The notes: a model not told the origin generated them from the letters alone. A stretch of DNA of 64,000 nt from an uncultured Candidatus Binatia bacterium (GCA_964534275.1 CAZHQG010000010.1:6744-70743), one strand, 5' to 3'; positions 2,126-39,118 are shown, counted from the stretch's first letter. Translations and numbers: made by a program.

Positions 2126-3160
2126 CTAAGGCAAGCGAATCGTGGCGGACGTAGCCCCGCCAGTATGGAGGTTACTCGCTGCGCTGCCTGTCACTCCGGC
2201 TTGGTCAATGTGGAAGGACTCCGCCACGCCCACCAACCCGGTCGGTAGCCTTAGTTGCGCCTGAGCAAAGATGGTCGCGATCGCTCCACCCGTCAGCAAC
2301 GTCGACCGAAACTGCCCGGTTGTTTGCGGCGTATTCCCGAGGTCGATTGTCGTCCAGCACTGATGGGGAAATGATCCACTAAAGGGGGATTCAAATTCGT
2401 CGTACACGATGTACGACACCGTTCCGTTGCTCCGCACTCCAGCGGCAAGGTCCAGATTGCACGACAACAGCGTCAGGTTCGTCGCGATGAACGAATTCAG
2501 ATTCGCGTTGCCCAGGTCTTCGATGACCGGGTCCAGCGAGCCACGCGGACTGAAATTTAGGGTCAGCGAGCCTGGGCAGGTCTCGTATTCGCTGCCATCT
2601 AATGCCAGCGGGTTGCTGAGGCTCTGCGACACTGCAGCCACGGCGAACGCATTGTATTTGCTCACGTCGCCGGTGTTGTCATCCATGATGGTCACTTCCC
2701 CCTTGAGCCGGTTTTGACCCCGGGGATCGCCATTGGCGTCAACTTCTACACACACAAGCGCCCCTTGGAATCCGGGTGGAACAGGCGGAATCAACCCAGG
2801 GTCGAAGCCCGCGCCGGCGCTACCAAACGAATCTGTCGGGTCCACCCGGCGGCCTTGCGACACCCTCCATTGCGTAGGCTGCTGCCGAGTGAGCACAAGC
2901 TCGAAATCCACCGCGCCACAGTACCCACTGCCGTCTGGGGCCGACAGGTAAAAGCAGTGAACCCAGTTGATGGAGTTCCCGGTATTCGTGATTTGCACGA
3001 TCGTGTCGCGCTGGCCCGTGCGGACGACCTTCGGGAACATCAAGATCGAGCCCGGCCGATCCGTTCCAGATCTCGTCTGCTGCGCCTGGGAGCCGGCAGC
3101 GCCCGCGAAGACGCACAGCATTCCGATCCCCAAAAGCCAGCTCCTGTACAGTGCCCTCAT
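2126..3160 (-). CDS. Secreted protein, paralog B of the same uncharacterised family. It is the shortest member and lacks the Cys-rich inserts.
   Basis: ORF 2126..3190, with start refined to MRALYRSWLLGIGMLCVFAGAAGSQA (AAGGAGG RBS immediately upstream). Contains FPKVV, HCFY, DFELVLTRQQPTQW, IPPVPPGFQGALVCVEV, YNAF and YDEFES motifs. Confidence 0.7.
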   Translation of the reverse strand: MRALYRSWLLGIGMLCVFAGAAGSQAQQTRSGTDRPGSILMFPKVVRTGQRDTIVQITNTGNSINWVHCFYLSAPDGSGYCGAVDFELVLTRQQPTQWRVSQGRRVDPTDSFGSAGAGFDPGLIPPVPPGFQGALVCVEVDANGDPRGQNRLKGEVTIMDDNTGDVSKYNAFAVAAVSQSLSNPLALDGSEYETCPGSLTLNFSPRGSLDPVIEDLGNANLNSFIATNLTLLSCNLDLAAGVRSNGTVSYIVYDEFESPFSGSFPHQCWTTIDLGNTPQTTGQFRSTLLTGGAIATIFAQAQLRLPTGLVGVAESFHIDQAGVTGSAASNLHTGGATSATIRLP

Positions 3161-3235
3161 GGCTATCCTCCTTGCGGTCCGTCCCCGCATTGTTGACTCC
3201 TTTTTAAGTTCGCCTGGCTACTCATCGGCGCTGGC

Positions 3236-4444
3236 CTACGGCAAGATCATCAAGTCGCTCCGGCCATTCCCCTGCTGATGCAGGTCGTACGCCGCACTGC
3301 TCAGCGTCCCAGTGGGGAAATTCGCCTGCGCTACCCCGAGAAGCCCCGATCCGAGAGGCGAAACGCCACCCACCCCGCGGATTCGGGTTTGCCCCCCAAG
3401 CGTACCAGCGACGCCAGCACTGAAAATCGAGCGCGCAGGGTTGCGCGTGTCGATGCGCGATAGCTGCGTGGCGTGGAAGAGGCAATCCACAGTGCGGCTC
3501 GTCGAGAAGCGCTGCTCGAACTCGTTGAACACCAGAAACTGCGCTACCGAGCGGCCAGGTGTTTGGGTCGAGAAGTCGTTCGAGCACGGAACCAAGGTCA
3601 AGTCCGATATGTACTGAATCGCAACATTGTTCGTGATGGGATCTACTGCGCCGTCGAACATGTGGCTGAGAATCAGCACCCCGGGGCAGGATGCATAGTT
3701 GCCGCCGTCGGCTAGAACGAGCTGGCCGTTGGAAACGGGATTGCCGGTCGCCTCGAGGCCAACTGCATTATAACGAGCTGGATTTAGACCGGTTAGAATG
3801 GTGGCGTCGCCGTAAAGCTTGTCTCGGGTAGCCGTCTGGTCGGGGACACTCTGGCTGCCTCCGGTAAACTGGATGCACACCAACGCACCAATGAACGGAT
3901 CTTCTGGAACCGGGGGAATCGCGCTGCCCAGGTTGCTTTGACCGGTGTTGCAGCCGACGTTGTTTGGGCATTGCGCATCAGAGAAGCACTGGAGGTTGAC
4001 AAACGGGGCATTGCACCGAAACGGGCCTTCGAGCGGAAACTGCCCGCGCGCAAGCCCGTCGCTCGCATACCATGCCAGCGGCTGCTCTTGCGTGAGTACA
4101 ACATCGAAGTCGGTTTCGTTCCAGCTCGGCACGCACTCCCCGCGGCCGCCACAGTCCGTCGCATCGCGGCAACCAGCTCCATCGTTCGAACAGTGGCCGG
4201 TAGCGTTGATGTAAAAACAGTGCGCCTGTTTAATACCGCTCGCGTTTGTGCTGCTCAGCATCAGGCGCGTATCCGTCGGCGCTACCAACCAACGAGCGCT
4301 TGTGTCTACCACTATTTTGGGCCAAACCACGATGGACGCCGGTCGGTTCGTCGTGCTTCGGGCATTTGCAATACCAGCCATGGCCACCAATGCCACGCCC
4401 GCGCCTACTCCCATGCGGGCAGCCGCTTGCCACATCTTCTTCAT
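3236..4444 (-). CDS. Secreted protein, paralog C of the same uncharacterised family.
   Basis: ORF 3236..4606, with start refined to MKKMWQAAARMGVGAGVALVAMAGIANA (signal peptide, AAGGAG RBS). Motifs WPKIVV, HCFYINATGHC, CRDATDCGGRGEC, DFDVVLTQEQPLAW, LVPCS and FNEFEQ. Confidence 0.7.
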   Translation of the reverse strand: MKKMWQAAARMGVGAGVALVAMAGIANARSTTNRPASIVVWPKIVVDTSARWLVAPTDTRLMLSSTNASGIKQAHCFYINATGHCSNDGAGCRDATDCGGRGECVPSWNETDFDVVLTQEQPLAWYASDGLARGQFPLEGPFRCNAPFVNLQCFSDAQCPNNVGCNTGQSNLGSAIPPVPEDPFIGALVCIQFTGGSQSVPDQTATRDKLYGDATILTGLNPARYNAVGLEATGNPVSNGQLVLADGGNYASCPGVLILSHMFDGAVDPITNNVAIQYISDLTLVPCSNDFSTQTPGRSVAQFLVFNEFEQRFSTSRTVDCLFHATQLSRIDTRNPARSIFSAGVAGTLGGQTRIRGVGGVSPLGSGLLGVAQANFPTGTLSSAAYDLHQQGNGRSDLMILP

Positions 4445-4523: not shown

Positions 4524-5795
4524 TTATGGCAACGTGATAATGTCGCCGAATCCCGAACGGCTACCCTCGTGGCGCAAGTTAAAGGCAGCGGTGCCAACCG
4601 AACCACCCAAGCTGTAGAATTCTTCCGCCACGCCCAAAACGCCCGAGGCAGGCAGGCAGCCTAGCACAGTGCCCCCAGGGCCGGTCTGCACGTTGGTGCC
4701 GCAGTCACTATGCTGGGTGCAGGAACTGCCCCTGTTCGAACCGGAATAACAAACGTTGATGGGACGAGGCGAAATGCGGATCTTCCAGAGGTCCTGGTTG
4801 CCGTTCACGAAGACCCCGCCGCCCGAAACCGGGAGGTCGGCGAGTCGGCGATTGAGGAAACAATCGAACGAGAAGGCCTCGATACTGAGCGGCTGCTCGA
4901 ACTCGTTGTATCCCACGAAACGAACACGCACAGGTGCGGGAAGGTCCTCTTCGATCAGTTCACTACAGGGAACCAACGTGAGCTCCGTGCTAATGGTGGC
5001 ACCCGTAAACGCGTCTGTGACACCCTCTGCGTTTGCCGTAAATACCAAGCTTGCTGGACAATAATTCAACTCTCCGGCACCCGTGCCGGTCCAGTTGAGC
5101 CGCAGCTCTTTATCCGTATTGAGGCCACCGCCTCCTACATCCGCATTCGCGGCTACGGTCAGGGCATTGTACTCGCTAATCTGCGCCGAACTAAGGTCCT
5201 CGATTGTCGCAGTGCCCTTCAGAGCATTCCCCGGAAACGGATCACCATCAGAGTTCATTTGGTAGCACTTGAGCTCGCCTACGAACTGGCTCCCCACCGG
5301 CGGAACGAAGGACGCCTGGTTCTGCCCAATCAACAGTCCAGGACACACGAGCTGTCCGGACGTGTCCACGGTACATTGGCAGTTCTGACCCGGGCGGCAT
5401 GGAGCCGAGGGAATGGTTGTGAGCCTCCCAGTGGACACCCGCCATTGCACAGGCTGCTGCGCGGTCAGAGCGAGTTCAAAATTCGTTGCATTGCACACGC
5501 GAATGCACTGCTCGTTCGTAGGACAGTCCGCATCGATCTCACAGCTCTCGTCTGTTGTCAGGCTGCAAGTCCCTGAGGCGTTGATGTAAAAACAGTGCAC
5601 CTGAACGAAAGAGTTTGTCCGGTTGCTCAGTTGGATAAGGGTATCGCGCACCCCATCGGACACTACCTTCGGAAAGATGATCAACGTGCCGGACTCATCC
5701 GACGTCACGTCTCCCCGTGCACCTGGCGCCGTCACCAGCCCCGCCAGCAGCACGCCTAGGCCCATCAGCCAAGGACTCCGCTTCACCAATCGCAT
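4524..5795 (-). CDS. Secreted protein, paralog D of the same uncharacterised family.
   Basis: ORF 4524..5948, with start refined to MRLVKRSPWLMGLGVLLAGLVTAPGARG (GGAGGCG RBS). Motifs FPKVV, HCFYINASGTC, CEIDADCPTNEQC, NFELALTAQQPVQW, LVPCSE and YNEFEQ. The C-terminus ends ...ITLP, like paralogs B and C. Confidence 0.7.
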   Translation of the reverse strand: MRLVKRSPWLMGLGVLLAGLVTAPGARGDVTSDESGTLIIFPKVVSDGVRDTLIQLSNRTNSFVQVHCFYINASGTCSLTTDESCEIDADCPTNEQCIRVCNATNFELALTAQQPVQWRVSTGRLTTIPSAPCRPGQNCQCTVDTSGQLVCPGLLIGQNQASFVPPVGSQFVGELKCYQMNSDGDPFPGNALKGTATIEDLSSAQISEYNALTVAANADVGGGGLNTDKELRLNWTGTGAGELNYCPASLVFTANAEGVTDAFTGATISTELTLVPCSELIEEDLPAPVRVRFVGYNEFEQPLSIEAFSFDCFLNRRLADLPVSGGGVFVNGNQDLWKIRISPRPINVCYSGSNRGSSCTQHSDCGTNVQTGPGGTVLGCLPASGVLGVAEEFYSLGGSVGTAAFNLRHEGSRSGFGDIITLP

Positions 5796-5944: not shown

Positions 5945-8419
5945 TCACGGCGAGCGTCGCACCACGATTTCCGTCACAGGCCCTGGTCGCCCGCTCGTAT
6001 CGAGTACGCGTGCAGTCAACACCGTGTCTCCCACCGCGAACTCCAAGTTTCTACTGACCACAGCGCAGAATTGCCTTCCGCTACTCGGCAGGTTCGGCGT
6101 GATCGTAGCCTCGAGGCCGTCTGGCCCAAGAGTACAGGGTTCGCTCGGGAGTTTCGGGTCGAACCGGCAAGCAAAATCCACCAGCGCATCGATTTTGTCC
6201 GGCGCAAAATCCGCAACGCTCACGCCCGGCACCCCGCCTCCACCTTGAGCTACTGGCTGCGTGTCGCAAATCGTAGTGGAACCGTTCCCTAAGTCTCGGT
6301 TGCTCAGGATTTGCAAGCTCGGGTAGATCCCCAAGCCCGGGGTCGGGGGAGGCACGCTGGTGCCAACCGTTCCTCCCCCACTTCCAGGCCGGGCTTCCAA
6401 AACGAGATAGAAACCGGAGGAACTCCCGATGCGAAAAACTCGCCGGCCGGATCCGTCGAACTCTGGAGTTGGCGTCGGCGTGCTGCCGCAGAGGCAGCTC
6501 GGCTCGTTGCACCAGTAGCAGCCGTTCGCGCGGACCACTCCGAAGAAGGTGACGATCGGGCCGGCAGCAGCACTGGTGGCCGTCGGTGTGGCGGTGATTG
6601 TCGGCGTGGCAGTGATCGTGCGCGTGAGGGTGATGGTCGGGGTGGCGGTCGGGAGCGGCGTATTCGTCGGTGTGCGCGTGGCCGTACCTGTCGGAGTACT
6701 CGTCGGGGTGGCAGTGAACGAGCGCGTTGGTGTCGGAGTACGAGTCGAAGTCGGCGACCAAGTGTTGGTGGGTGTCAGCGTCAGAGTCGGCGTGCGTGTG
6801 GCTGTAGCCGTGCTCGTCTCGGTTCGCGTAGGAGTAGCCGTGCGCGAAGGAGTCGGCGACCACGTGCTCGTCGGCGTCCACGTAACCGTCGGCGTGCGTG
6901 TGGCTGTGGCTGTGCTCGTCTCAGTTTGAGTAGGAGTAGCCGTGCGCGAAGAAGTCGGCGACCACGTGCTCGTCGCCGTCCACGTGCCAGTGGGAGTTCC
7001 GGTTGCCGTGGCGCTACTCGTCGCGGTTCGTGTAGGCGTCGCTGTAGGCGACGCGGTGGGGGACCAGCTTGGCGTGGCCGAGGCCGTTGGAGTTCCCGTG
7101 AATGTAACCGTCGCGGGTGGGCTGGCAGTTCGGGTTGCCGATGGAGACGCCGTGCCCGACGAGGTGGTCGTGGAAGTCGGCGAAGCGCTCGCCGATGGTG
7201 TGTTCGTCGCGCTCGGTAAGGGAGTTCCCGAGGGCGAAAGGGTCGGAGACGGCGTAGCCGAAGAAGATCGCGTCGGAGTCGCGGTGTTGGACCCTGTGAG
7301 CGTTGGCTCCGGCGACGGCGTCATCGAGGGATTGGGGGTATCTGACGGTGTGCTGGTCGCCGAAGCCGTGCTCGACGGGCTGGGCGGGTTCGCCGTAGCC
7401 GTGGGAGAAGGTGTAGGCGTCTCGCTCCTCGTGGCACTTGGCGTTGCCGAGGGCGTTCGCGTGCGCGTGGGCGGGATCGTCCAAGTCGGAGTCGGTGTCG
7501 CTGTGTTAGACACCGTTGCCGTTGGCGTGCGTGTGGTCGTTGCCGAGCGCGACGGCGTGACGCTGGCCGTTCCTGTAACCGTTGCAGTCGCCGACAACGT
7601 TGGTAGGGGCGACTGCGTGGACGTGGCGGTGCCCGTGGGGCTCGCTGTCGCCAAGGGCTCTACTGGAGAGGGGCTCATCGAAGGCGTAGGACTCCCCGTC
7701 GGCGTAGGTTCTGCCGGTGTATCGGTAGGTTGTGGGGGCGGGGTCACCGAGGGCAACGGGGATTCGGTCGGAGACGCCAAGCCGGTTGCTGTCGGAGTTG
7801 GACTGAGCGACGGCACCGTAGTAAACATGGGTGTCGGTGTCCGGGAAGACGTCGCGGCCGGCGTCACGCTGACGGTCGGCGACGCTGAGTGGGTCGGACT
7901 GGGAGTTGGCGTCGACGAAGGTAATTCGTTGGCCGATCGCGTGGGCGATGGTGTGGATGTGGGCGATGCGGTTGGCGTTCCAGTGGCCGACCGAGTGCCT
8001 GTCGGAGTCGAACTGCGCGTTCGTGTCGGAAGCGCGGTGACCGTACCTGTTCCGGTTGGCGTTGCAGTTGCAACGGCACTCGCTGTTCGCGTGGGAGTTG
8101 GGGTAGAGGTGTCGGTTGGAAGGGACGTTGCGGTTGCGGACGCCGATGGACTCGGCGTACCGGTCGAGACCGGTGACGGGGTTTCAGAAGGAGGAGGCAA
8201 CACCAACAACCCAGCAAACCCAATGATGTCCGCAGCCGTCGCCCGCCCGTCGCCGTTCACGTCCGCCTGCGGACAATACGGATCCTCGAAGAGCGAGGCA
8301 GCAATCGCCGCGACTTCGGCGTCGGGTATGCTATCGCAGTTCACGTCGATGCTGACCGCGCTGGCAGTACTGGCCACCAGCCACAGCGTCAGCAGTCGCC
8401 CAACCCAACTTCTTACCAT
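5945..8419 (-). CDS. Large secreted protein (824 aa). It has a signal peptide, a dockerin-like double Ca-binding module, a roughly 500-aa Thr/Pro/Ser low-complexity linker, and a roughly 200-aa Cys-containing C-terminal domain.
   Basis: N-terminus [21 protein letters not shown] is a signal peptide. It is followed by [20 protein letters not shown] and [20 protein letters not shown], which are dockerin/EF-hand-like duplicated loops. The long TPTxTPS repeat region explains the junk ORFs in the other frames. It is the first gene of the minus-strand operon and its stop overlaps the frame of paralog D. Confidence 0.7.
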
Positions 8420-12269: not shown

Positions 12270-12776
12270 GGCTCGAGTATCGACACGTCCGCCAAAAAAC
12301 ACAATGGCACCGCAGCGCGAGACTGCCCCCCACGATTGCCCCAGACCACAGGCGGCACACTGCAGCGATCTTGCTTCGCCGGCCGTGAACATGGACTTGC
12401 CAAGTCTCGGCGCATGTCGTCGGTGGGCACCGAGCAGCGGAATCCATTAGGCAGGCGCAATTTGGTTGCGAAACGCGCTAATGGGTGATAGGGGCAGCAA
12501 CGGCGATGCACGAGTTGCGGACGAGATGGTGGTGGTTGGTGCAACATCGCGCCCTAGCTGTTTTTGTTCTTCCTCCACACGGCTTCAACGATGCACGCGC
12601 GCTTTGGAAGCGCGCCGATGTGCTCCAGGAATTCGTCATTGGCACACCTGGGGTTGACCTGTATACTTGTAGGCACGTTTGCAAGTGCGGTGTAGCGAGT
12701 GGAGCGATGACGTAGCGGGACGAACAACGAAAACGGCGTGGGGCATCACCGGCGGCAGACGCCAAGGAGCTCAAAG

Positions 12777-14720
12777 GTTATGGTGGACATCGACAAGGCT
12801 CAGTTTCAACGGCTGATCGAAGAAGATCGGGCCGCCCGGGGTGCGAGAGAGTGGCGGGGAACTTTTCTCGATTACCTCGAGCGGGTCAAACAAGATCCGT
12901 CGATCCCCAAGCTTGCCCATGCCCGGATCTACGACATGATCCTGCAAGCCGGCGTGCGGGATGTGCTCGACACCGACGACCCCCGCACGAAGCGGCTATT
13001 CAAAGACGAGCCGCTCAAAATTTACAACTTCTTCGCGGATTCGTTCTTTGGCATCGAGCGCGTGATCGCGCAAATTGTGCGGTACTTCCACGCGGCTGCC
13101 CTCAAGGGCGAGGAAAGCCGGCAGGTCTTGTACCTGATGGGGCCGGTCGGTTCAGGAAAGAGTTCGCTGGTCGAGCACATCCAACGGGGTCTCGAACAAA
13201 GCCCCCCGTTTTATGCGATCGAGGGCTGCCCCATGTTCGAGGAACCGTTGCACTTACTCCCTCGCCACTTGCGGCGCGAGTTCGAAAAAATGCTTGGGGT
13301 GCACATCGAAGGCGACCTCTGCCCGGTGTGTCGTTTTCGCCTGAAAGAGGAGTACCGCGGAAAGTACGAGGAAGTTCCGGTCGTGTTGCGGTCGTTCTCC
13401 AAGCGTAACCGGGTTGGCATCGGAGTGGTGCCGCCGGTGGACCCGAACAACCAAGACACCTCGGTGCTCATCGGGTCGGAAGACATCTCCAAGCTCGACC
13501 TATACTCCGAAGGGGATCCGCGGGTGTTGGATCTCAACGGGGCGCTGAACGTCGGCAACCGCGGCATCGTCGAGTTCATCGAGGTCTTCAAAAACGAAAC
13601 GGAATACCTGCATGCAATGATCACCGCCACGCAAGAGAAGGTGATTCCCGCGCCGGGACGCCACGGAATGGTGTACGTAGACGAGGTGATCATCGCGCAT
13701 TCCAACGAGGCGGAGTGGCAAAAGTTCAAGTCTGACCACACCAACGAGGCCATCCTCGACCGCATCGTGGTGGTCAAGGTTCCCTACAACCTGCGGCTCT
13801 CGGAAGAAGTGAAAATCTACGAAAAAATCCTGCGCAACTCGGACTTCCGTGCCCACATCGCCCCGCACACGTTGGAGATCGCCTCGATGTTCGCAATTCT
13901 GACGCGGCTCGAACCGACGAGCAAATGCGACCTGATGACCAAGCTCAAGCTCTACAACGGGGAAGAGGTGATCGAAAAAGGCCGGACAAAGAAAATCGAT
14001 GTGCGAGAGTTGCGCGAGGACGCAAAGCGGGAAGGCATGTTCGGCATCTCCACGCGCTTCATCATGAAGGCGTTGGACAACGCTTTGTCGGACAATATCG
14101 AAGGCAACTGCATCAACCCGATCAGCGTCCGCGAGGCTTTGATCCAAATGACGAAAGAAGCCGACCTGCCCGACGATACCCGCAAGCAATACCTCGAGTT
14201 CTTGCAAGACACCCTGCACAAGGAATACCTGGACATCCTCGAACGCGAGATCACCAAGGCCTTCGTGTACTCTTACCAAGAGCAAGCCGAAGCATTGTTC
14301 CAAAACTACCTCGACCATGCGGAAGCATTCGTGAACCGCACGAAGGTACGCGACCGGAACACCAAGGAAGAACTTCAACCCGACGAGGCTTTCTTGAAAT
14401 CGATCGAGGAACAAATCGCCATCATCGGTTCTGCGGCCGAAGGCTTCCGGCAAGAAGTCATTGCGTACCTGTGGGCGGCAAGCCGCCGCGGGGAAAAGGT
14501 GACGTACCAGAGCTACGAGCCCCTGAAGGAGGCGATCGAGAAGAAACTGATGACCTCGGTGCGCGACATTAGCCGCATCATCACCAAGGCGCGCACGCGA
14601 GACGAAGAGCAAACGGAAAAGTACAATGCCATGGTGCGCAACCTGCTCACGCAAGGATATTGCCACAGTTGCGTGGACGTGGTGCTCAAATACGCCGCAA
14701 ACAACTTGTGGAAGGATTGA
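12777..14720 (+). CDS. prkA: PrkA family serine protein kinase (YeaG-like).
   Basis: Long colinear similarity to PrkA/YeaG, including the AAA-type GPVGSGKSSL Walker A motif. It is followed by yeaH-like and spoVR-like genes. Confidence 0.85.
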   Translation, partial: VMVDIDKAQFQRLIEEDRAARGAREWRGTFLDYLERVKQDPSIPKLAHARIYDMILQAGVRDVLDTDDPRTKRLFKDEPLKIYNFFADSFFGIERVIAQIVRYFHAAALKGEESRQVLYLMGPVGSGKSSLVEHIQRGLEQSPPFYAIEGCPMFEEPLHLLPRHLRREFEKMLGVHIEGDLCPVCRFRLKEEYRGKYEEVPVVLRSFSKRNRVGIGVVPPVDPNNQDTSVLIGSEDISKLDLYSEGDPRVLDLNGALNVGNRGIVEFIEVFKNETEYLHAMITATQEKVIPAPGRHGMVYVDEVIIAHSNEAEWQKFKSDHTNEAILDRIVVVKVPYNLRLSEEVKIYEKILRNSDFRAHIAPHTLEIASMFAILTRLEPTSKCDLMTKLKLYNGEEVIEKGRTKKIDVRELREDAKREGMFGISTRFIMKALDNALSDNIEGNCINPISVREALIQMTKEADLPDDTRKQYLEFLQDTLHKEYLDILEREITKAFVYSYQEQAEALFQNYLDHAEAFVNRTKVRDRNTKEELQPDEAFLKSIEEQIAIIGSAAEGFRQEVIAYLWAASRRGEKVTYQSYEPLKEAIEKKLMTSVRDISRIITKARTRDEEQTEKYNAMVRNLLTQGYCHSCVDVVLKYAANNLWKD

Positions 14721-14794
14721 ACCTGGCCATGAGCACGGTGTGGTAACTGCGCTGGCCTGGGCATCGTGGTCCTAGGCCAAGGAGCTGAAGACAC

Positions 14795-15976
14795 ATGCCC
14801 ATTCCCGAGTCGATTTTCAGGCCGTTCAATCCGTCCGATGCCGAGCGGAGCGACCGAGCCGCCGGGGATCGTCAGCGACACCGAGAAAAGGTACGCCAGT
14901 CGATCCGCGAAAACATCGCGGACATCATCGCCGAGGAGGCGATTATCGGCAAAGATGGCAGCCGGATCATCAAGGTGCCCATCCGAGGCATCAAAGAGTA
15001 CCGGTTTGTGTACGGCGAAAATACACCCGGAGTGGGACAGGGTGAAGGCGAGCTGGAGCCCGGGCAAGTCTTACGCAGCGGGGAAGGAGAGGGAGAAGGG
15101 CCAGCCGAGCGACCGGGGGATCGACCCGGCGTGGATTACTACGAAACCGACGTCACCCTGGATGAACTCGTCGAAATCATGTTCGAGGATCTCGAACTCC
15201 CGGACCTCGAGCGGCGCAAACTGCGAGAGCTACCAGCGCTGCGAATCCTCAAGCGCAAAGGGTACCGCAGTGCGGGCCTGCGGGTGCGCTTGGACAAGCG
15301 GCGCACGGTGAAGTCCAAGGTGCGCCGGCGTTTAGCGTCGCAGCGGCGGACCGAACTGGGCACGGGCGAACGGTTCCCGTTCCACGAAGACGATTTGACT
15401 TACCGCCACATGGTGCCGGACGTAAAAGAGGAATCCAACGCCGTGGTGCTGTGCATGATGGACACCTCTGGCTCCATGGACACGATGAAGAAATACCTCG
15501 CCCGCAGCTTCTTCTTTCTCCTCTTCCAGTTCGTCCGGGCCAAGTACCGGAACGTCGAACTCGTCTTTATTGCCCACCACACGGAAGCTCGGGAAGTTTC
15601 GGAAGAAGAATTTTTCCACAAAGGAGAATCCGGGGGCACGTTCATTTCTTCCGCGTACCAAAAGGCGTTGGAGATCATTCAGGAACGGTACCATCCTTCG
15701 CTTTGGAACATCTACGCGTTTCACTGTTCCGACGGCGATAATTTCGAGTCCGACAATCCCACGGCACTCAAGTTGGCCGAAGAACTTTGCCAAGTCGCCA
15801 ACCTGTTCGGATACGGAGAAATCAAGCCCCTCGGGTCGCGATATTACGAAAATTCCATGCTTCAACTGTTCCGCCGCATCGAGGCGGACAATTTCCATAC
15901 GGTTTTAATCGAGCGGAAAGAAGACGTGTGGCCGAGCTTTAAAGCATTTCTCGCCCGCGACCGCGTTCGGGAGTGA
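14795..15976 (+). CDS. YeaH/YhbH family protein (DUF444, vWA-like).
   Basis: ETDVTLDELVEIMFEDLELPDLERRKLRE and the C-terminal vWA-like region match UPF0229. It occupies the conserved position between prkA and spoVR. Confidence 0.8.
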   Translation: MPIPESIFRPFNPSDAERSDRAAGDRQRHREKVRQSIRENIADIIAEEAIIGKDGSRIIKVPIRGIKEYRFVYGENTPGVGQGEGELEPGQVLRSGEGEGEGPAERPGDRPGVDYYETDVTLDELVEIMFEDLELPDLERRKLRELPALRILKRKGYRSAGLRVRLDKRRTVKSKVRRRLASQRRTELGTGERFPFHEDDLTYRHMVPDVKEESNAVVLCMMDTSGSMDTMKKYLARSFFFLLFQFVRAKYRNVELVFIAHHTEAREVSEEEFFHKGESGGTFISSAYQKALEIIQERYHPSLWNIYAFHCSDGDNFESDNPTALKLAEELCQVANLFGYGEIKPLGSRYYENSMLQLFRRIEADNFHTVLIERKEDVWPSFKAFLARDRVRE

Positions 15977-15977
15977 C

Positions 15978-17411
15978 ATGCGTTCCTACGACCTTCACGA
16001 CCTGATCGAGTGGGACAAGCGCATCCGCGACAAAGTGGCTGCGTTCGGGCTCGACTGTTTCCCTCAGGAGTTCGAACTTTGCGACCACAATCAAATGCTG
16101 GGCTACATGGCGTACTCTGGAATGCCTTCCCACTACCCGCATTGGTCGTACGGCAAAGCGTACGAGAAACTGAAAACCCTGTACGATCACGGTGTTGCCG
16201 GGCTGCCTTACGAAATGGTGATCAATTCCAATCCTGCACTTGCCTATCTCATGCGCGACAACACGCTTGCCCTACAAATCCTGACCATCGCGCACGTGTA
16301 CGCGCACAACGACTTTTTCAAAAACAACTTCACGTTCCAAAGCACGCACCCGGAGTACGTCATTGGGACGATGAAAAGCCATGGTCAGCGGGTGCGCTCC
16401 TACATCGAGTCGCCCAGCATCGGGATCGATGAGGTCGAGCGGGTCCTCGACGCCGCTCATGCCCTTGCGCTGCAGTGCCGACGCAATCTCGCCGTACGCA
16501 AGCTCAGCGAGGAGGAACAACGGCAACGCAAGCTGGAAGCCGCCAACCCTCGGGAAGATCCGTTCGCCAAGGTGCACAAACGGCAGCCAATCTCCACCCC
16601 AGATCTACACAAGGTGCCGCTCGAACCCGAAGAAGACTTGTTGCTCTTCATCCGCGACCACAATCCGTACCTCGAAGAATGGCAGCGCGACCTGCTGACG
16701 ATCGTGCACGAGGAAGCACAGTACTTCATCCCGCAAATCGAAACGAAGATCATGAACGAGGGCTGGGCCACGTTCTGGCACAAGCGCATCCTCGAGAGTC
16801 TGGAGCTGCCCCAGGATTTGCACTTGGAGTTTCTCGTGCGTCACAACCAGGTGGTGCGCCCGATCCCAGGAGGGCTCAACCCTTACCACATCGGGTGGAA
16901 GATCTGGGAAGATCTTTACCGGCGCTACGAACACCCCGAGCCGGATGAAGAAGAAAGCTTGGAATCCGGGGTTCGTTCTGGCCTGGAAAAAATCTTCTCT
17001 GTGCGGGCAGCCGATCGCGACGCTTCGTTCCTGCGCCGCCACCTAACCGAGAAGCTCGTTCGCGAGTTGCGTTTGTTCGAGTACCGCGTTCGAGGAGGAG
17101 ATTGGGTAGTCACGGAAGTTGCCGATGACGAGGGGTGGCGGCAAATCAAGGAAACACTGATCCGCTCCGTGGGCATGAACAGCGTGCCGGTCATCAAGGT
17201 GGAGGATGCAGACTTCGGACACCAACGGACATTGCTGCTCGTGCACGAACACGATGGGCGCGACCTACACCTGGAATACGCAGAAAAAACTCTCGCCTAC
17301 GTTCACCAACTGTGGGGCCGGGACGTTGCCCTGCAAACGATCGTGAACGGGAAAAAAGTTCTCCTGCAGTACGGCGAACGTGGGTTCACCACGAGGCAAC
17401 TGACCCGTTAA
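15978..17411 (+). CDS. spoVR: SpoVR family protein (YcgB-like).
   Basis: MRSYDLHDLIEWDKRIRDKVAAFGLDCFPQEFELCDHNQMLGYMAYSGMPSHYPHWSYGK is the canonical SpoVR N-terminus. Confidence 0.85.
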   Translation: MRSYDLHDLIEWDKRIRDKVAAFGLDCFPQEFELCDHNQMLGYMAYSGMPSHYPHWSYGKAYEKLKTLYDHGVAGLPYEMVINSNPALAYLMRDNTLALQILTIAHVYAHNDFFKNNFTFQSTHPEYVIGTMKSHGQRVRSYIESPSIGIDEVERVLDAAHALALQCRRNLAVRKLSEEEQRQRKLEAANPREDPFAKVHKRQPISTPDLHKVPLEPEEDLLLFIRDHNPYLEEWQRDLLTIVHEEAQYFIPQIETKIMNEGWATFWHKRILESLELPQDLHLEFLVRHNQVVRPIPGGLNPYHIGWKIWEDLYRRYEHPEPDEEESLESGVRSGLEKIFSVRAADRDASFLRRHLTEKLVRELRLFEYRVRGGDWVVTEVADDEGWRQIKETLIRSVGMNSVPVIKVEDADFGHQRTLLLVHEHDGRDLHLEYAEKTLAYVHQLWGRDVALQTIVNGKKVLLQYGERGFTTRQLTR

Positions 17412-17508
17412 ATCGACCCCACCGAGACTCTTCGGTTCGGGGCCGGACTTCGCCTTGGCAGTGGCGCAGGCCGGCAGAGCGAGGCGGGACACACGTAGGG
17501 GCTAAGCC

Positions 17509-22834: not shown

Positions 22835-23234
22835 TGGTCCTGAACTTCGATGGTTTCGACGCATAGTGCAAGCAGCGGACGCAGAAAAGCAAGGCCCAAG
22901 TTCCGCTCCGCTCACCCACGGTGAACAACACGCAACAACAGACGGTATTCTTGGCAGGAAGTGGAGAGCAAACTGAGGGACGGGCAAAGTGATCCACGCG
23001 GCCACCCTGCAAGGCATCTGGGTACGGGAGCATAGCTAGCGCCGCGGTTGCTTGCGGTTCGGTTCGGTTTGGTACTGTCCACGTTTTCCGGCCTTGCCCT
23101 CCCTTTTGCCATCAGGGACCAGCACTCGACGAAGCACCCTTCCAGCGAGCATGGGTCGGCCAAGGCAGCTCCGATGACCGGGTTCTCCCGCCATCCACCC
23201 TGCTTCCGAAACTGGTTCTCGCCGATCCCCGTGC

Positions 23235-23740
23235 AGATTCTGGACAGGCAGATTCTGGACACACACGTTTCGCAGCCGAATCAGAGTCTGGACGCACAAA
23301 TTCGATTCTGGACACACATATTTCGCAGCGGCCGACAACAATTTCGCGACACGCACAGGCTCAGGACATGAGCTTTCGATCAGGCGCTGTCCTGGCCTCA
23401 CATTGGTGCTGGGGGTCTTAAACACCTGATCACAGCCCTCGGAAATGTTTTTGGGTCCCGGGGCTACAGCGTTGAACTTCTTGAGCTGCTGCCGACCCGA
23501 GGCCGCTCAGCATCCGCAAAGACTGGAAGCCTGGGATACGGCCGCGAAATGGGCGGACGTCGGGCTCCCCGGTTTCGGTGTGTGACCGCAAATTTGCGTG
23601 TGTCCACAAATTTGCGTCCACGCATTTGCGCTAGTTCGTGGAGGCTACCGGCCCCGCGAATTTCGTGCGTGTCGAACAGTTGATGGGAGAAACCGGGTAT
23701 CTGGAAACTTTTTCTGGAAAGTTTGTGTGTGTCCAGAAAT
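23235..23740. repeat. Cluster of at least seven degenerate copies of a GGACACAC / GTGTGTCC-core motif (for example gattctggacacacacgtttcgcagc, gtgtgtccacaaatttgcg) in a roughly 1-kb non-coding region upstream of the SAM-synthetase gene.
   Basis: Read directly from the sequence: tctggacaggca, tctggacacacacg, tctggacgcacaaa, tctggacacacata (23241-23320), then gtgtgtgaccgcaaatttgcgtgtgtccacaaatttgcgtccacgcatttgcg (23577-23630) and gtttgtgtgtgtccagaaat (23721-23740). The same core recurs at 38.0-38.9 kb. Confidence 0.6.
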
Positions 23741-23864
23741 AAATGGGCAGTCCTGGTTGTCACTCTCGCGCGCGGAGGTGCCACGGATCGATCGTCGGCG
23801 GTCTCCCCTGACGCCGAAACGATCCGCTCGTGCGTATTTTGCTCACACTACTATAAGGGCCGTC

Positions 23865-37749: not shown

Positions 37750-38020
37750 AGCTCCGCCCCGTGTGGGACGGGCTCCTCGACAAACGCGGCAAGAACCGTG
37801 GGATGTGAGCCTCAAAACGGCGCGCACCGAAGACCTGGAGGCATGCCCCCTCCCTACAAGCCGCAGCCGTACAAAACCGCAGAGCTCCTCCGTCAGGGGG
37901 TAAGCGGAGAAGCGACCCCCAGGGGGGTAGGTGCCAACTTCTCCCCCCGACTCCACCGAGACCAATCGATTGCTCCGATCGACGTGCGAAGCCCGTACGG
38001 GCCAACCCCGGATTTGCCCC

Positions 38021-38880
38021 GGATTTGGACACGCACAGAAGCGAACTGCGAACCTCTAAAATTTGGACACGCACGAAACCTGCGGCGGCCCACCGCCGCG
38101 CAGACTCCCCTCACTGGGCTCTCGCGGGCAGCTGCGGCAGAGGCACCCAACCCCACGTTCGAGCAAAGATTTGGACACACACCAAACGACGAGCGGGTTA
38201 GTCCGGAGGCACTCGAGAACACCGCCCCAACAGCACCGCGATTGGGGCCGGGGCCCGCCCCCCCGGCCCTCTTTCCGGAGCTTTCAACCTTCCTTACTTA
38301 TTGCCTCCGGTTCCGCCCTGGAGACCCAGTAGCCGCCAGCCAAACAATCCGGCCTTGGCCCGGGCGGACCCCACGGCACCAAAAACGGCCGCTCAAAATC
38401 GATCCCGTGCGTCGCCTCCGAGCGGCACGTCGCAAATCGTGTGTGTCCATAAACGAGGCCCCAGGGTGCAGCTCCCCGCAACTCGCCACAAATCAGGGGG
38501 TTGAGCGCGCGTACCAAATTTTGGTGTGTGTCCTCAAATTCTCTCACGTACCAAATTTTGGTGTGTGTCCTCAAATTCTCTCACGTACCAAATTTTGGTG
38601 TGTGTCCTCAAATTCTTCAGGTCCCAAAATCCCAAGTGCCTGGCTGGCCGCTGACCTAAGGTCGCCGTTTGATGTGTGTCCTGAATTGCATCCCTCCTAA
38701 TCAGTCCTCCGACGGCCATCGTTTGGTGTGTGTCCTGAATCTTCTCGGCGGGCGGCTGACGTACGGTCAAGGATTGGTGTGTGTCCTGAATTTTTCTCTC
38801 TGGCCGGGAGGGGACGAGTTACGGTCGTTCTTTCGTGTGTGTCCTGAATCTTCCCTGAATCTTCCTGTGAATTTTCCTTC
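38021..38880. repeat. Second cluster of the GGACACAC/GTGTGTCC-core repeat, with at least 11 copies. The first three (38.03-38.19 kb) are in one orientation and the rest in the opposite orientation.
   Basis: aaatttggacacgcac x2 and gatttggacacacaccaaacg, then tgtgtgtccataaacg, 3x accaaattttggtgtgtgtcctcaaattctctca, gatgtgtgtcctgaattgc, tttggtgtgtgtcctgaatcttc, gattggtgtgtgtcctgaattttt and tttcgtgtgtgtcctgaatcttc. It lies in the 1.37-kb non-coding gap upstream of the mevalonate genes. Confidence 0.65.
38509..38619. repeat. Perfect 37-bp tandem direct repeat, about 2.9 copies (cgtaccaaattttggtgtgtgtcctcaaattctctca).
   Basis: Copies at 38509-38545 and 38546-38582 are identical. The third copy (38583-38619) diverges only in its last roughly 6 nt. 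The units are contiguous with no spacers. Confidence 0.85.
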
Positions 38881-39019
38881 TGATGAATTTTCGTTGGTTT
38901 CTCTACGGTTTACGGCCGTCTTGAGGGGGCAGTCGGAAAGTAGCCGGAGGTCGTAGTCTCCTACTTCGGGCCGCTTGATTGACTGGTCAGGCTCGTGTAT
39001 GGGTTGCCCTTGACCACGA

Positions 39020-39069
39020 GGTTTATAGGATGCGGTTGATAGGGTCTGGTTTATATGGTTCGGTTTATA
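39020..39069 (+). promoter_or_regulatory. AT-rich element with three direct GGTTTATA repeats, about 50-100 nt upstream of the mevalonate operon. Candidate promoter or operator.
   Basis: ggtttataggatgcggttgatagggtctggtttatatggttcggtttatacc is markedly AT-rich against the GC-rich background, and it immediately precedes the start of the diphosphomevalonate decarboxylase gene. Confidence 0.25.
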
Positions 39070-39118
39070 CCTCTAGGTCAGTAACTCCCTGCGGGACAAG
39101 GCCCCGATCGGTGCTTCA

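Follow-up and report, generated by a model that had tools for sequence, protein, structure and literature searches.

The two clusters of short repeats found in the window (the whole 64-kb stretch of DNA analysed here) are, with a probability that we put at roughly 0.68, gene-less 'TIRtron-like' clusters of REP-like units, the recognition of which would be due to a Y1 enzyme whose gene lies at another place in the genome. The clusters lie upstream of genes for SAM synthesis and for the mevalonate/hopanoid pathway, and an earlier note on this DNA had proposed arrays of operator sites as one of three explanations. Because such repeats bracket REP-type transposase genes in many bacteria, the arrays are most likely selfish or domesticated repeat DNA and not switches of SAM or isoprenoid genes. 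They provide no evidence for a regulon joining the two sets of genes, which removes a tempting false lead. What they do is extend Y1-transposase-associated repeats to a little-studied, previously unsurveyed phylum, and this should not be taken for a new regulatory system.

The copies define a non-palindromic unit of ~22 nt, aATTyN-GGACACACAC-sAAA. The short shared motif noticed previously is genuine, but the real unit is longer than the 8-mer GGACACAC. Of this 8-mer the window contains 15 copies where 2.35 would be expected, a count reached by none of 100 shuffled sequences, and 13 of the 15 copies are located within two spacer regions. Exact copies in coding DNA are found at 5341 and 17487 only; both lack the flanks of the unit, score below the profile threshold and are chance matches. 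We made a 22-nt profile from the window copies and, with a match threshold of at least 10 bits, obtained 19 matches in the window, while shuffled sequences gave an average of 0.8 and never more than 2. Eight matches fall at 23242-23727 and 11 at 38027-38837, in agreement with the earlier counts of at least seven copies between 23.2 and 23.7 kb and at least 11 between 38.0 and 38.9 kb. Outside the two spacers the profile had no match in the window, either in coding or in non-coding DNA, and we conclude that the repeat family is real. The window units read (C/T/A)(T/A/G)GGACAC / ATTC[A/T]GGACACACAC, with the GGGG prefix missing. The window-type unit is ATTCNGGACACACAC, its counterpart in relatives being GGACACCCAC; GGCACAACAC denotes, by definition only, a permuted 10-mer counterpart of the core GGACACACAC.

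Both clusters occupy long non-coding spacers of 1030 and 1369 bp (Table 1). As had been claimed, these are exceptional, because long ORFs fill the other apparent gaps of the window, which come from a crude gene call. Cluster 1 has a dTDP-glucose-dehydratase-like gene on one side and the gene for an archaeal-type AdoMet synthetase (metK) on the other, both diverging from the cluster. Cluster 2 is bordered by an S49 peptidase gene and by the gene for diphosphomevalonate decarboxylase (MVD), which is the first of the mevalonate/hopanoid block (MVD, GHMP kinase and HMG-CoA reductase). The identities given in the earlier note for the AdoMet synthetase and for the mevalonate genes were thus confirmed.

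The two clusters share the same layout: a block of '+' units, about 210-245 bp of unique DNA (the facing blocks being about 230-270 bp apart), and then a block of '-' units, so that both arrays face inward. Each block has a single orientation, with three to five '+' units followed by five to eight '-' units and a within-block spacing of 15 to 129 bp. The switch of orientation described for the second cluster is indeed present there, but it is not a property of that cluster alone, since cluster 1 has one too. No similarity was detected between the centres of clusters 1 and 2, and neither has a further copy in the window. Because the centres share nothing and neither recurs, the clusters are not two copies of one MITE. 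With respect to length, the centres of three gene-less facing arrays (23362-23572 and 38188-38433 in the window, and ~3144-3333 in L139, a syntenic relative described below) are alike, ~190-245 bp, with unrelated sequences.

Table 1. Position of the spacers, arrays and associated repeats in the window
Feature	Position	Strand	Details
Spacer 1	22835-23864		boundary from 366-aa gene call
Cluster 1 left array	23235-23361	+	4 units and 1 degenerate, GGAC(A/G)C(A/G)C on top strand
Cluster 1 left cores	23242, 23257, 23290, 23310	+	degenerate CGACACGC at 23347
Cluster 1 unique centre	23362-23572		~210 bp; no motif, no Y1 remnant
Cluster 1 right array	23573-23741	-	cores 23580, 23598, 23727; degenerate 23612, 23667
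Spacer 2	37750-39118
11-bp duplication CCCCGGATTTG	38006-38027		precedes cluster 2 left array
Cluster 2 left array	38020-38187	+	3 units, cores 38027, 38065, 38173
Cluster 2 unique centre	38188-38433		~245 bp, G+C-rich, GC 0.67
Cluster 2 right array	38434-38851	-	8 units
Cluster 2 right cores	38441, 38526, 38563, 38600, 38674, 38728, 38779, 38837	-
37-bp tandem triplication	38510-38620		inside cluster 2 right array
Tail of partial units	38844-38892		CTGAATCTTCC-like repeats of the unit's outer half
Four direct repeats GGTTTATAG / GGTTGATAG / GGTTTATAT / GGTTTATAC	39011-39072		14-bp period, TGACC before, just upstream of MVD start

High-GC genomes yield spurious ORFs, and a metagenome gene caller made a 236-aa ORF here, so it might be argued that the clusters are degraded coding sequence, a compositional artefact or an ordinary MITE copy. 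We consider that there is hardly any chance of this: 19 matches were found against 0.8 expected, the centres of the clusters are unrelated, the ORFs that overlap the spacers have no Pfam match, and the arrays lack a coding signal. A similar density of the motif in coding DNA, which the earlier note had regarded as the mark of an artefact, does not exist in the window, where none of the 19 profile matches is coding. Nor are the two regions degraded coding sequence, the other outcome by which the note would have been refuted.

The possibility that the spacers produce structured ncRNAs or long structured 5' leaders, in which GUGUGUCC/GGACACAC repeats would bind an RNA-binding protein, is very unlikely. 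With promoters upstream, transcripts of the right arrays would carry GUGUGUCC repeats in the metK and MVD leaders, and the right-hand array of cluster 1, folded as RNA, gave a z of -2.5; for cluster 2, however, z was only -1.2. Rfam 15 had no match over the spacers at the gathering thresholds, and relaxing the search to E values of up to 10 added only chance-level miRNA and snoRNA matches. Of 13 units folded as single-stranded DNA, 12 fell within 2 sd of shuffled sequences, so consistent hairpins are absent. Promoter and terminator scans of the spacers were at chance level, no tRNAs were found in the regions, units are present on both strands, and the spacer sequence is not conserved between species. 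A six-frame hmmsearch of the 64-kb window for a Y1 gene or remnant was also negative.

Several other candidates were considered and rejected. A sigma-54 promoter (GGACACACAC-TTGCA) has, on inspection, a GG-to-GC spacing that fits lineage L010 and neither the other lineages nor the window. An origin with DnaA boxes or iterons was rejected because, although one unit is similar to TGTGGA, the bases following TCC vary, the clusters are 15 kb apart and replication genes are absent nearby. A CsrA-type GGA sponge RNA or Shine-Dalgarno-like sites would not explain the absence of hairpin loops and the presence of units on both strands. In Tn7/Mu-type transposon ends a terminal TG faces outward, whereas here CACAC faces inward, and there is no transposase gene between the arrays. 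A literature search with the motif string returned primer noise only.

Comparison with related genomes bears directly on the operator explanation, according to which the units would be binding sites, original or co-opted, of a regulator acting on the mevalonate/hopanoid operon and on the gene for SAM synthetase. The nearest named relatives are 'Candidatus Binatia' MAGs, with 65-68% identity in AdoMet synthetase and 60-61% in MVD, and there are also several metagenomic strains near-identical to the window. In the fully syntenic L139 (GCA_026415395.1) the AdoMet synthetase gene is preceded by a motif-free spacer of 340 bp, and arrays upstream of metK were found in none of the three relatives compared (L139 and two others). 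L139 carries its array elsewhere, at 2443-4065: its SpoVR and luciferase-like genes are separated by a spacer of 2.2 kb, which measures just 97 bp in the window (17412-17508). This array contains ~15 '+' and then ~6 '-' units of GGACACCCAC, facing inward and without a Y1 gene. Upstream of MVD, arrays are present in three of six genomes, namely the window and two of five relatives: L142, from the same MAG as L139, has GTGGGTGTCC and GTGTGTCC units, and L144 has nine '-' units of AAAGTGGGTGTCCCAGATTGCC. No arrays precede MVD in L148 and L149, nor are there any in that part of the L143 spacer that is visible. In all three array-bearing genomes the '-' units are those proximal to MVD. The core variant is specific to each genome, with CCAC at both the L139 and L142 loci and ACAC in both clusters of the window. 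Outside the units the spacers cannot be aligned between species, with the exception of the GGTTTATAG element. The arrays are thus lineage-specific in position and genome-specific in their core. A search for a Y1 gene with tblastn in 181,603 bases of Binatia-like loci found none, and a species-specific two-copy pattern run against a metagenome collection yielded, for this species, the two window loci in strains and no others, along with loci of other taxa.

Non-orthologous sites combined with a genome-specific core are what would be expected of repeats that evolve in step with one trans-acting protein, and not of gene-specific operators. Both clusters do precede the start of a gene, three Binatia-like genomes have arrays in the S49-peptidase/MVD spacer with the same strand next to MVD, and the uniformity of the core within a genome fits a single trans-acting protein. 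Against this, the cluster of the SAM synthetase gene is missing in three relatives, including the closest syntenic one, the largest array of L139 is between the unrelated SpoVR and luciferase-like genes, the MVD spacers of two relatives and the visible part of that of a third have no array, the number of units differs between strains, and in unrelated phyla Y1 genes are bracketed by this core. The operator proposal of the earlier note is thus mostly contradicted, and we judge it unlikely. Some host function is nonetheless possible, because arrays recur upstream of MVD in three genomes with the '-' units proximal to the operon.

The spacer upstream of MVD contains a second repeated element, GGTTTATAG x4, whose position and sequence are conserved in each of the six Binatia-like genomes that we compared; elsewhere in this spacer no alignment is possible. 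Judged by this conservation, GGTTTATAG x4 is likely an operator or promoter element of the mevalonate/hopanoid operon, and as a candidate operator for that operon it is better than the arrays.

Strains that are 96-99% identical in unique DNA differ in cluster 2 by indels that are nearly all whole units. The 37-bp unit is present in one copy in strains L129 and L134 and in three in the window. An insertion of 80 bp adds one unit to the left array of cluster 2 in L134; individual strains carry extra units of 21 and 35 bp in cluster 2, and L001/L004 have one extra unit of 15 bp in the left array of cluster 1.

We scanned DNA alone, in 185,579 genomes (one per species), for the pattern GGACACACAC-N20-50-GGACACACAC, which gave at least 120 loci. 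About a fifth of the 120 loci listed are unrelated simple tandem repeats, and most of the others are intergenic arrays with a constant core and lineage-specific flanks, although the 'conservation' of the core across phyla is in part ascertainment because the search pattern fixed it. The hosts of arrays among the listed loci include Vibrio, Alteromonas, many marine Pseudomonadales, Phycisphaerae, Pirellulaceae, Thermoanaerobaculia and others. Using tblastn on loci of up to 8 kb, we found a Y1 HUH transposase-like gene, of the kind of RAYT/TIRYT relatives, in 33 of the 120 listed loci. The frequency of Y1 genes has been given as below 3% of strains for subclass 2.3 and ~15% for subclass 2.1, with two to four copies each (PMC6006769), and by chance ~0.1 of 120 8-kb loci would be expected to contain one, a baseline that derives from literature frequencies and not from a control scan. 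One locus of Phycisphaerae (L031) has a 224-aa gene between four '+' and four '-' units, and its product matches Pfam Y1_Tnp and, below the cut-off, NCBIfam REP_Tyr_transpos.

The orientation of the units with respect to these genes is very regular. Among units at up to 700 bp from a Y1 gene, 121 of 136 point inward, on the top strand at the left and on the bottom strand at the right (binomial p = 9e-22), and they do so independently of the strand of the Y1 gene. We also performed the reverse test, with loci free of DNA ascertainment (L145-L147): all three subclass-2.3-like genes, picked by protein similarity alone, are flanked by inward GGACACAC units. Counted together, subclass 2.3-like proteins accompanied by inward GGACACAC arrays in other phyla (L007-L126, L145-L147) were seen at 30 DNA-selected loci and at the three of three that were protein-selected. 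In some lineages the unit also forms perfect head-to-head palindromes (GGACACACACGTGTGTGTCC) or pairs that converge at a distance of 21 bp (L125 at 315-334 and 997-1064; L059 and L070 from Vibrio), and such paired units are REPIN-like dimers of the same core.

Most of the Y1 proteins beside arrays (30 of 33) have ~300-330 aa with NH[FY]H and YVDLNP motifs and match subclass 2.3; the remaining three have ~200-230 aa with NH[IV]H and YVELNP motifs and match the TIRYT/subclass 2.1 type. In 10 of 10 sequences N70-H71-x-H73 and Y184-V-D-L-N188 are invariant, so that the histidines of the HUH motif and the catalytic tyrosine are kept. Pfam Y1_Tnp recognised two of the five proteins scanned with 25.7-37.8 bits (cut-off 23); a Vibrio-type protein scored 18.3 bits, under the cut-off, and the Pirellulaceae-type protein of L017 had no Pfam match. 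With NCBIfam NF047646 (REP_Tyr_transpos) the scores were 34.6-62.5 bits, under the curated cut-off of 80, which places the array-associated Y1 proteins, by sequence score, as distant relatives of RAYTs and not as equivalogs. An AlphaFold (AF2) model with a pLDDT of 92.4 had as its best PDB match 4er8_A, the REP-associated tyrosine transposase of E. coli, followed in the fold search by IS608, ISDra2 and IS200 TnpA, all with probability 1.00. A search of PDB sequences with the Y1 profile found nothing where this fold search succeeded. From the motifs and the predicted fold, the proteins beside the arrays are Y1 HUH enzymes. The subclass 2.3-like family is large, with at least 6,000 proteins at E <= 1e-10 in a profile search. 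A search with the class B profile for the organism's own Y1 protein gave only gammaproteobacterial-type proteins among the matches listed. The best two class B profile matches (P0121 and P0122) have 600-616 aa, about twice the usual length, with ~69% of the query aligned, and may be tandem-duplicated or fused Y1 proteins.

We compared the window repeats with the known families of Y1-associated elements. The canonical REP carries a 5' GT[AG]G tag at the foot of an imperfect palindrome of 20-40 nt. In BIMEs the units are regularly spaced and alternate in orientation, a REPIN is formed by two inverted REPs with a short spacer that make one long hairpin, and REP, BIME and REPIN occur together with RAYT (TnpA-REP), for example in E. 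coli and Pseudomonas. In a REPtron, a Y1 gene present in single copy is flanked by repeats of its own, and the best-understood Y1 mechanism needs hairpins. The window repeats resemble these families in being short and intergenic, in their presence in both orientations, in their genome-specific sequence and in their persistence with turnover, and the associated Y1 protein has E. coli TnpA-REP (4er8) as its best structural match. However, the window units have neither a GTAG/GTGG tag nor a hairpin, their orientation does not alternate, and the facing arrays are separated by the unique centres instead of forming one hairpin as in a REPIN. The clusters also resemble PATEs and MITEs derived from IS200/IS605, in that these are non-autonomous DNA relying on a Y1 transposase encoded elsewhere, but PATE copies share a body and subterminal hairpins, while the window clusters share the 22-nt unit only. 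The suggestion of miniature repeat elements in the earlier note is therefore sustained for REP-like or TIR-type units linked to Y1 (RAYT/TIRYT-like) genes, and not for a MITE with a conserved body.

The closest likeness is to TIRtrons, TIRYT genes flanked by inverted, non-GTAG-REP repeats that share GGGGWSAS (Di Nocera et al. 2013, PMC3733652). Their repeats form moderately abundant families and are found as singles, dimers or clusters (PMC3733652), and TIRYTs have been equated with TnpA-Y1 subclass 2.1 (Quentin et al. 2018, PMC6006769). As in TIRtrons, the window units are non-palindromic, unrelated to GTAG REPs and have a short G-rich/ACAC-type motif, all 19 are intergenic and clustered, and in other genomes (33 of the 120 listed loci) the same core flanks Y1 genes in inverted, inward orientation. 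GGGGACAC, from the class A loci L031, L116 and L125, fits GGGGWSAS, whereas the window units keep the WSAS part (ACAC) and lack the first two G. The window differs from TIRtrons in other respects too: the clusters have the same orientation without a Y1 gene, the units are stacked in same-orientation blocks of up to eight that face each other, and the Binatia-like host lineage is outside the TIRtron and Y1 surveys. Subclass 2.3 has been described as proteins of ~325 aa with NHYH and YVDLNP motifs from Alteromonadales and Chromatiales, and no identifiable REP-like structures were reported for it or for subclass 2.1, hairpins being what was searched (PMC6006769). The 30 of 33 array-adjacent genes share the length and motifs of subclass 2.3 but are flanked by GGACACAC arrays, whose units are hairpin-less. 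Among the known families, those of the TIR type accommodate the window repeats best.

According to the preferred reading, a Y1 HUH enzyme encoded elsewhere in the genome, beyond the window and the 181,603 bases of relatives searched, would recognise the units, and its specificity would keep all the copies within one genome alike. By analogy with IS200/IS605 and TnpA-REP, it may act by cleavage and rejoining of single-stranded DNA. The units would be seeded and amplified in dispensable intergenic DNA, and each cluster would constitute a gene-less TIRtron-like structure. If the SAM-synthetase or mevalonate/hopanoid genes are affected at all, this would be a secondary consequence of promoter spacing, insulation or co-option.

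A less likely origin of the clusters is that they were left after the loss of a Y1 gene, and in its strict form, in which each cluster would be the inert scar of a complete TIRtron with the gene between its arrays deleted, we find it quite improbable. The architecture is identical to that of the gene-containing loci, and the centres (~210 and ~245 bp in the window and ~190 bp in L139) are comparable to the summed gene-to-unit distances of intact loci. Yet no protein remnant is detectable in the window, the centres are mutually unrelated, and two scars within 15 kb plus a third in a relative would need several independent gene losses. The perfect 37-bp tandem copies and the strain-specific gains of units indicate ongoing turnover, which also argues against a scar.

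The Y1 subfamily motif and GGTTTATAG x4, although by-products of this analysis, are of more interest than the window arrays themselves. A large Y1 subfamily described as lacking cognate repeats has a simple and strongly oriented flanking motif, and this motif offers a concrete substrate on which to test hairpin-less DNA recognition by enzymes presumed to be domesticated. A wider proposal, which we put forward tentatively and regard as doubtful, is that GGACAC(A/C)CAC represents a third, hairpin-less tag class of Y1 repeats beside the GTAG and CGTC REPs. Its core of 8-10 nt would be kept from Gammaproteobacteria to Planctomycetota and the Binatia-like lineage and would be read by enzymes of subclasses 2.3 and 2.1. 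The Binatia-like arrays retained upstream of the mevalonate/hopanoid operon, rewritten according to the enzyme of each genome, would then be a domesticated protein-binding platform with a host function.

Two other regions of the window may be mentioned. At 6747-7036 there is a 102-bp tandem repeat of 2.3-2.8 copies with 81-86% matches and a nested 18-bp periodicity of the GTCGGCGT type, and this region has ORFs on both strands with unusual codon-position GC. Finally, the window can be assigned to the Binatia lineage by the block at 12738-17411, which contains the PrkA, DUF444 and SpoVR trio followed by the genes for a luciferase-like monooxygenase, PI-PLC and Fe/Mn-SOD, and which is syntenic in its entirety with Binatia MAGs.
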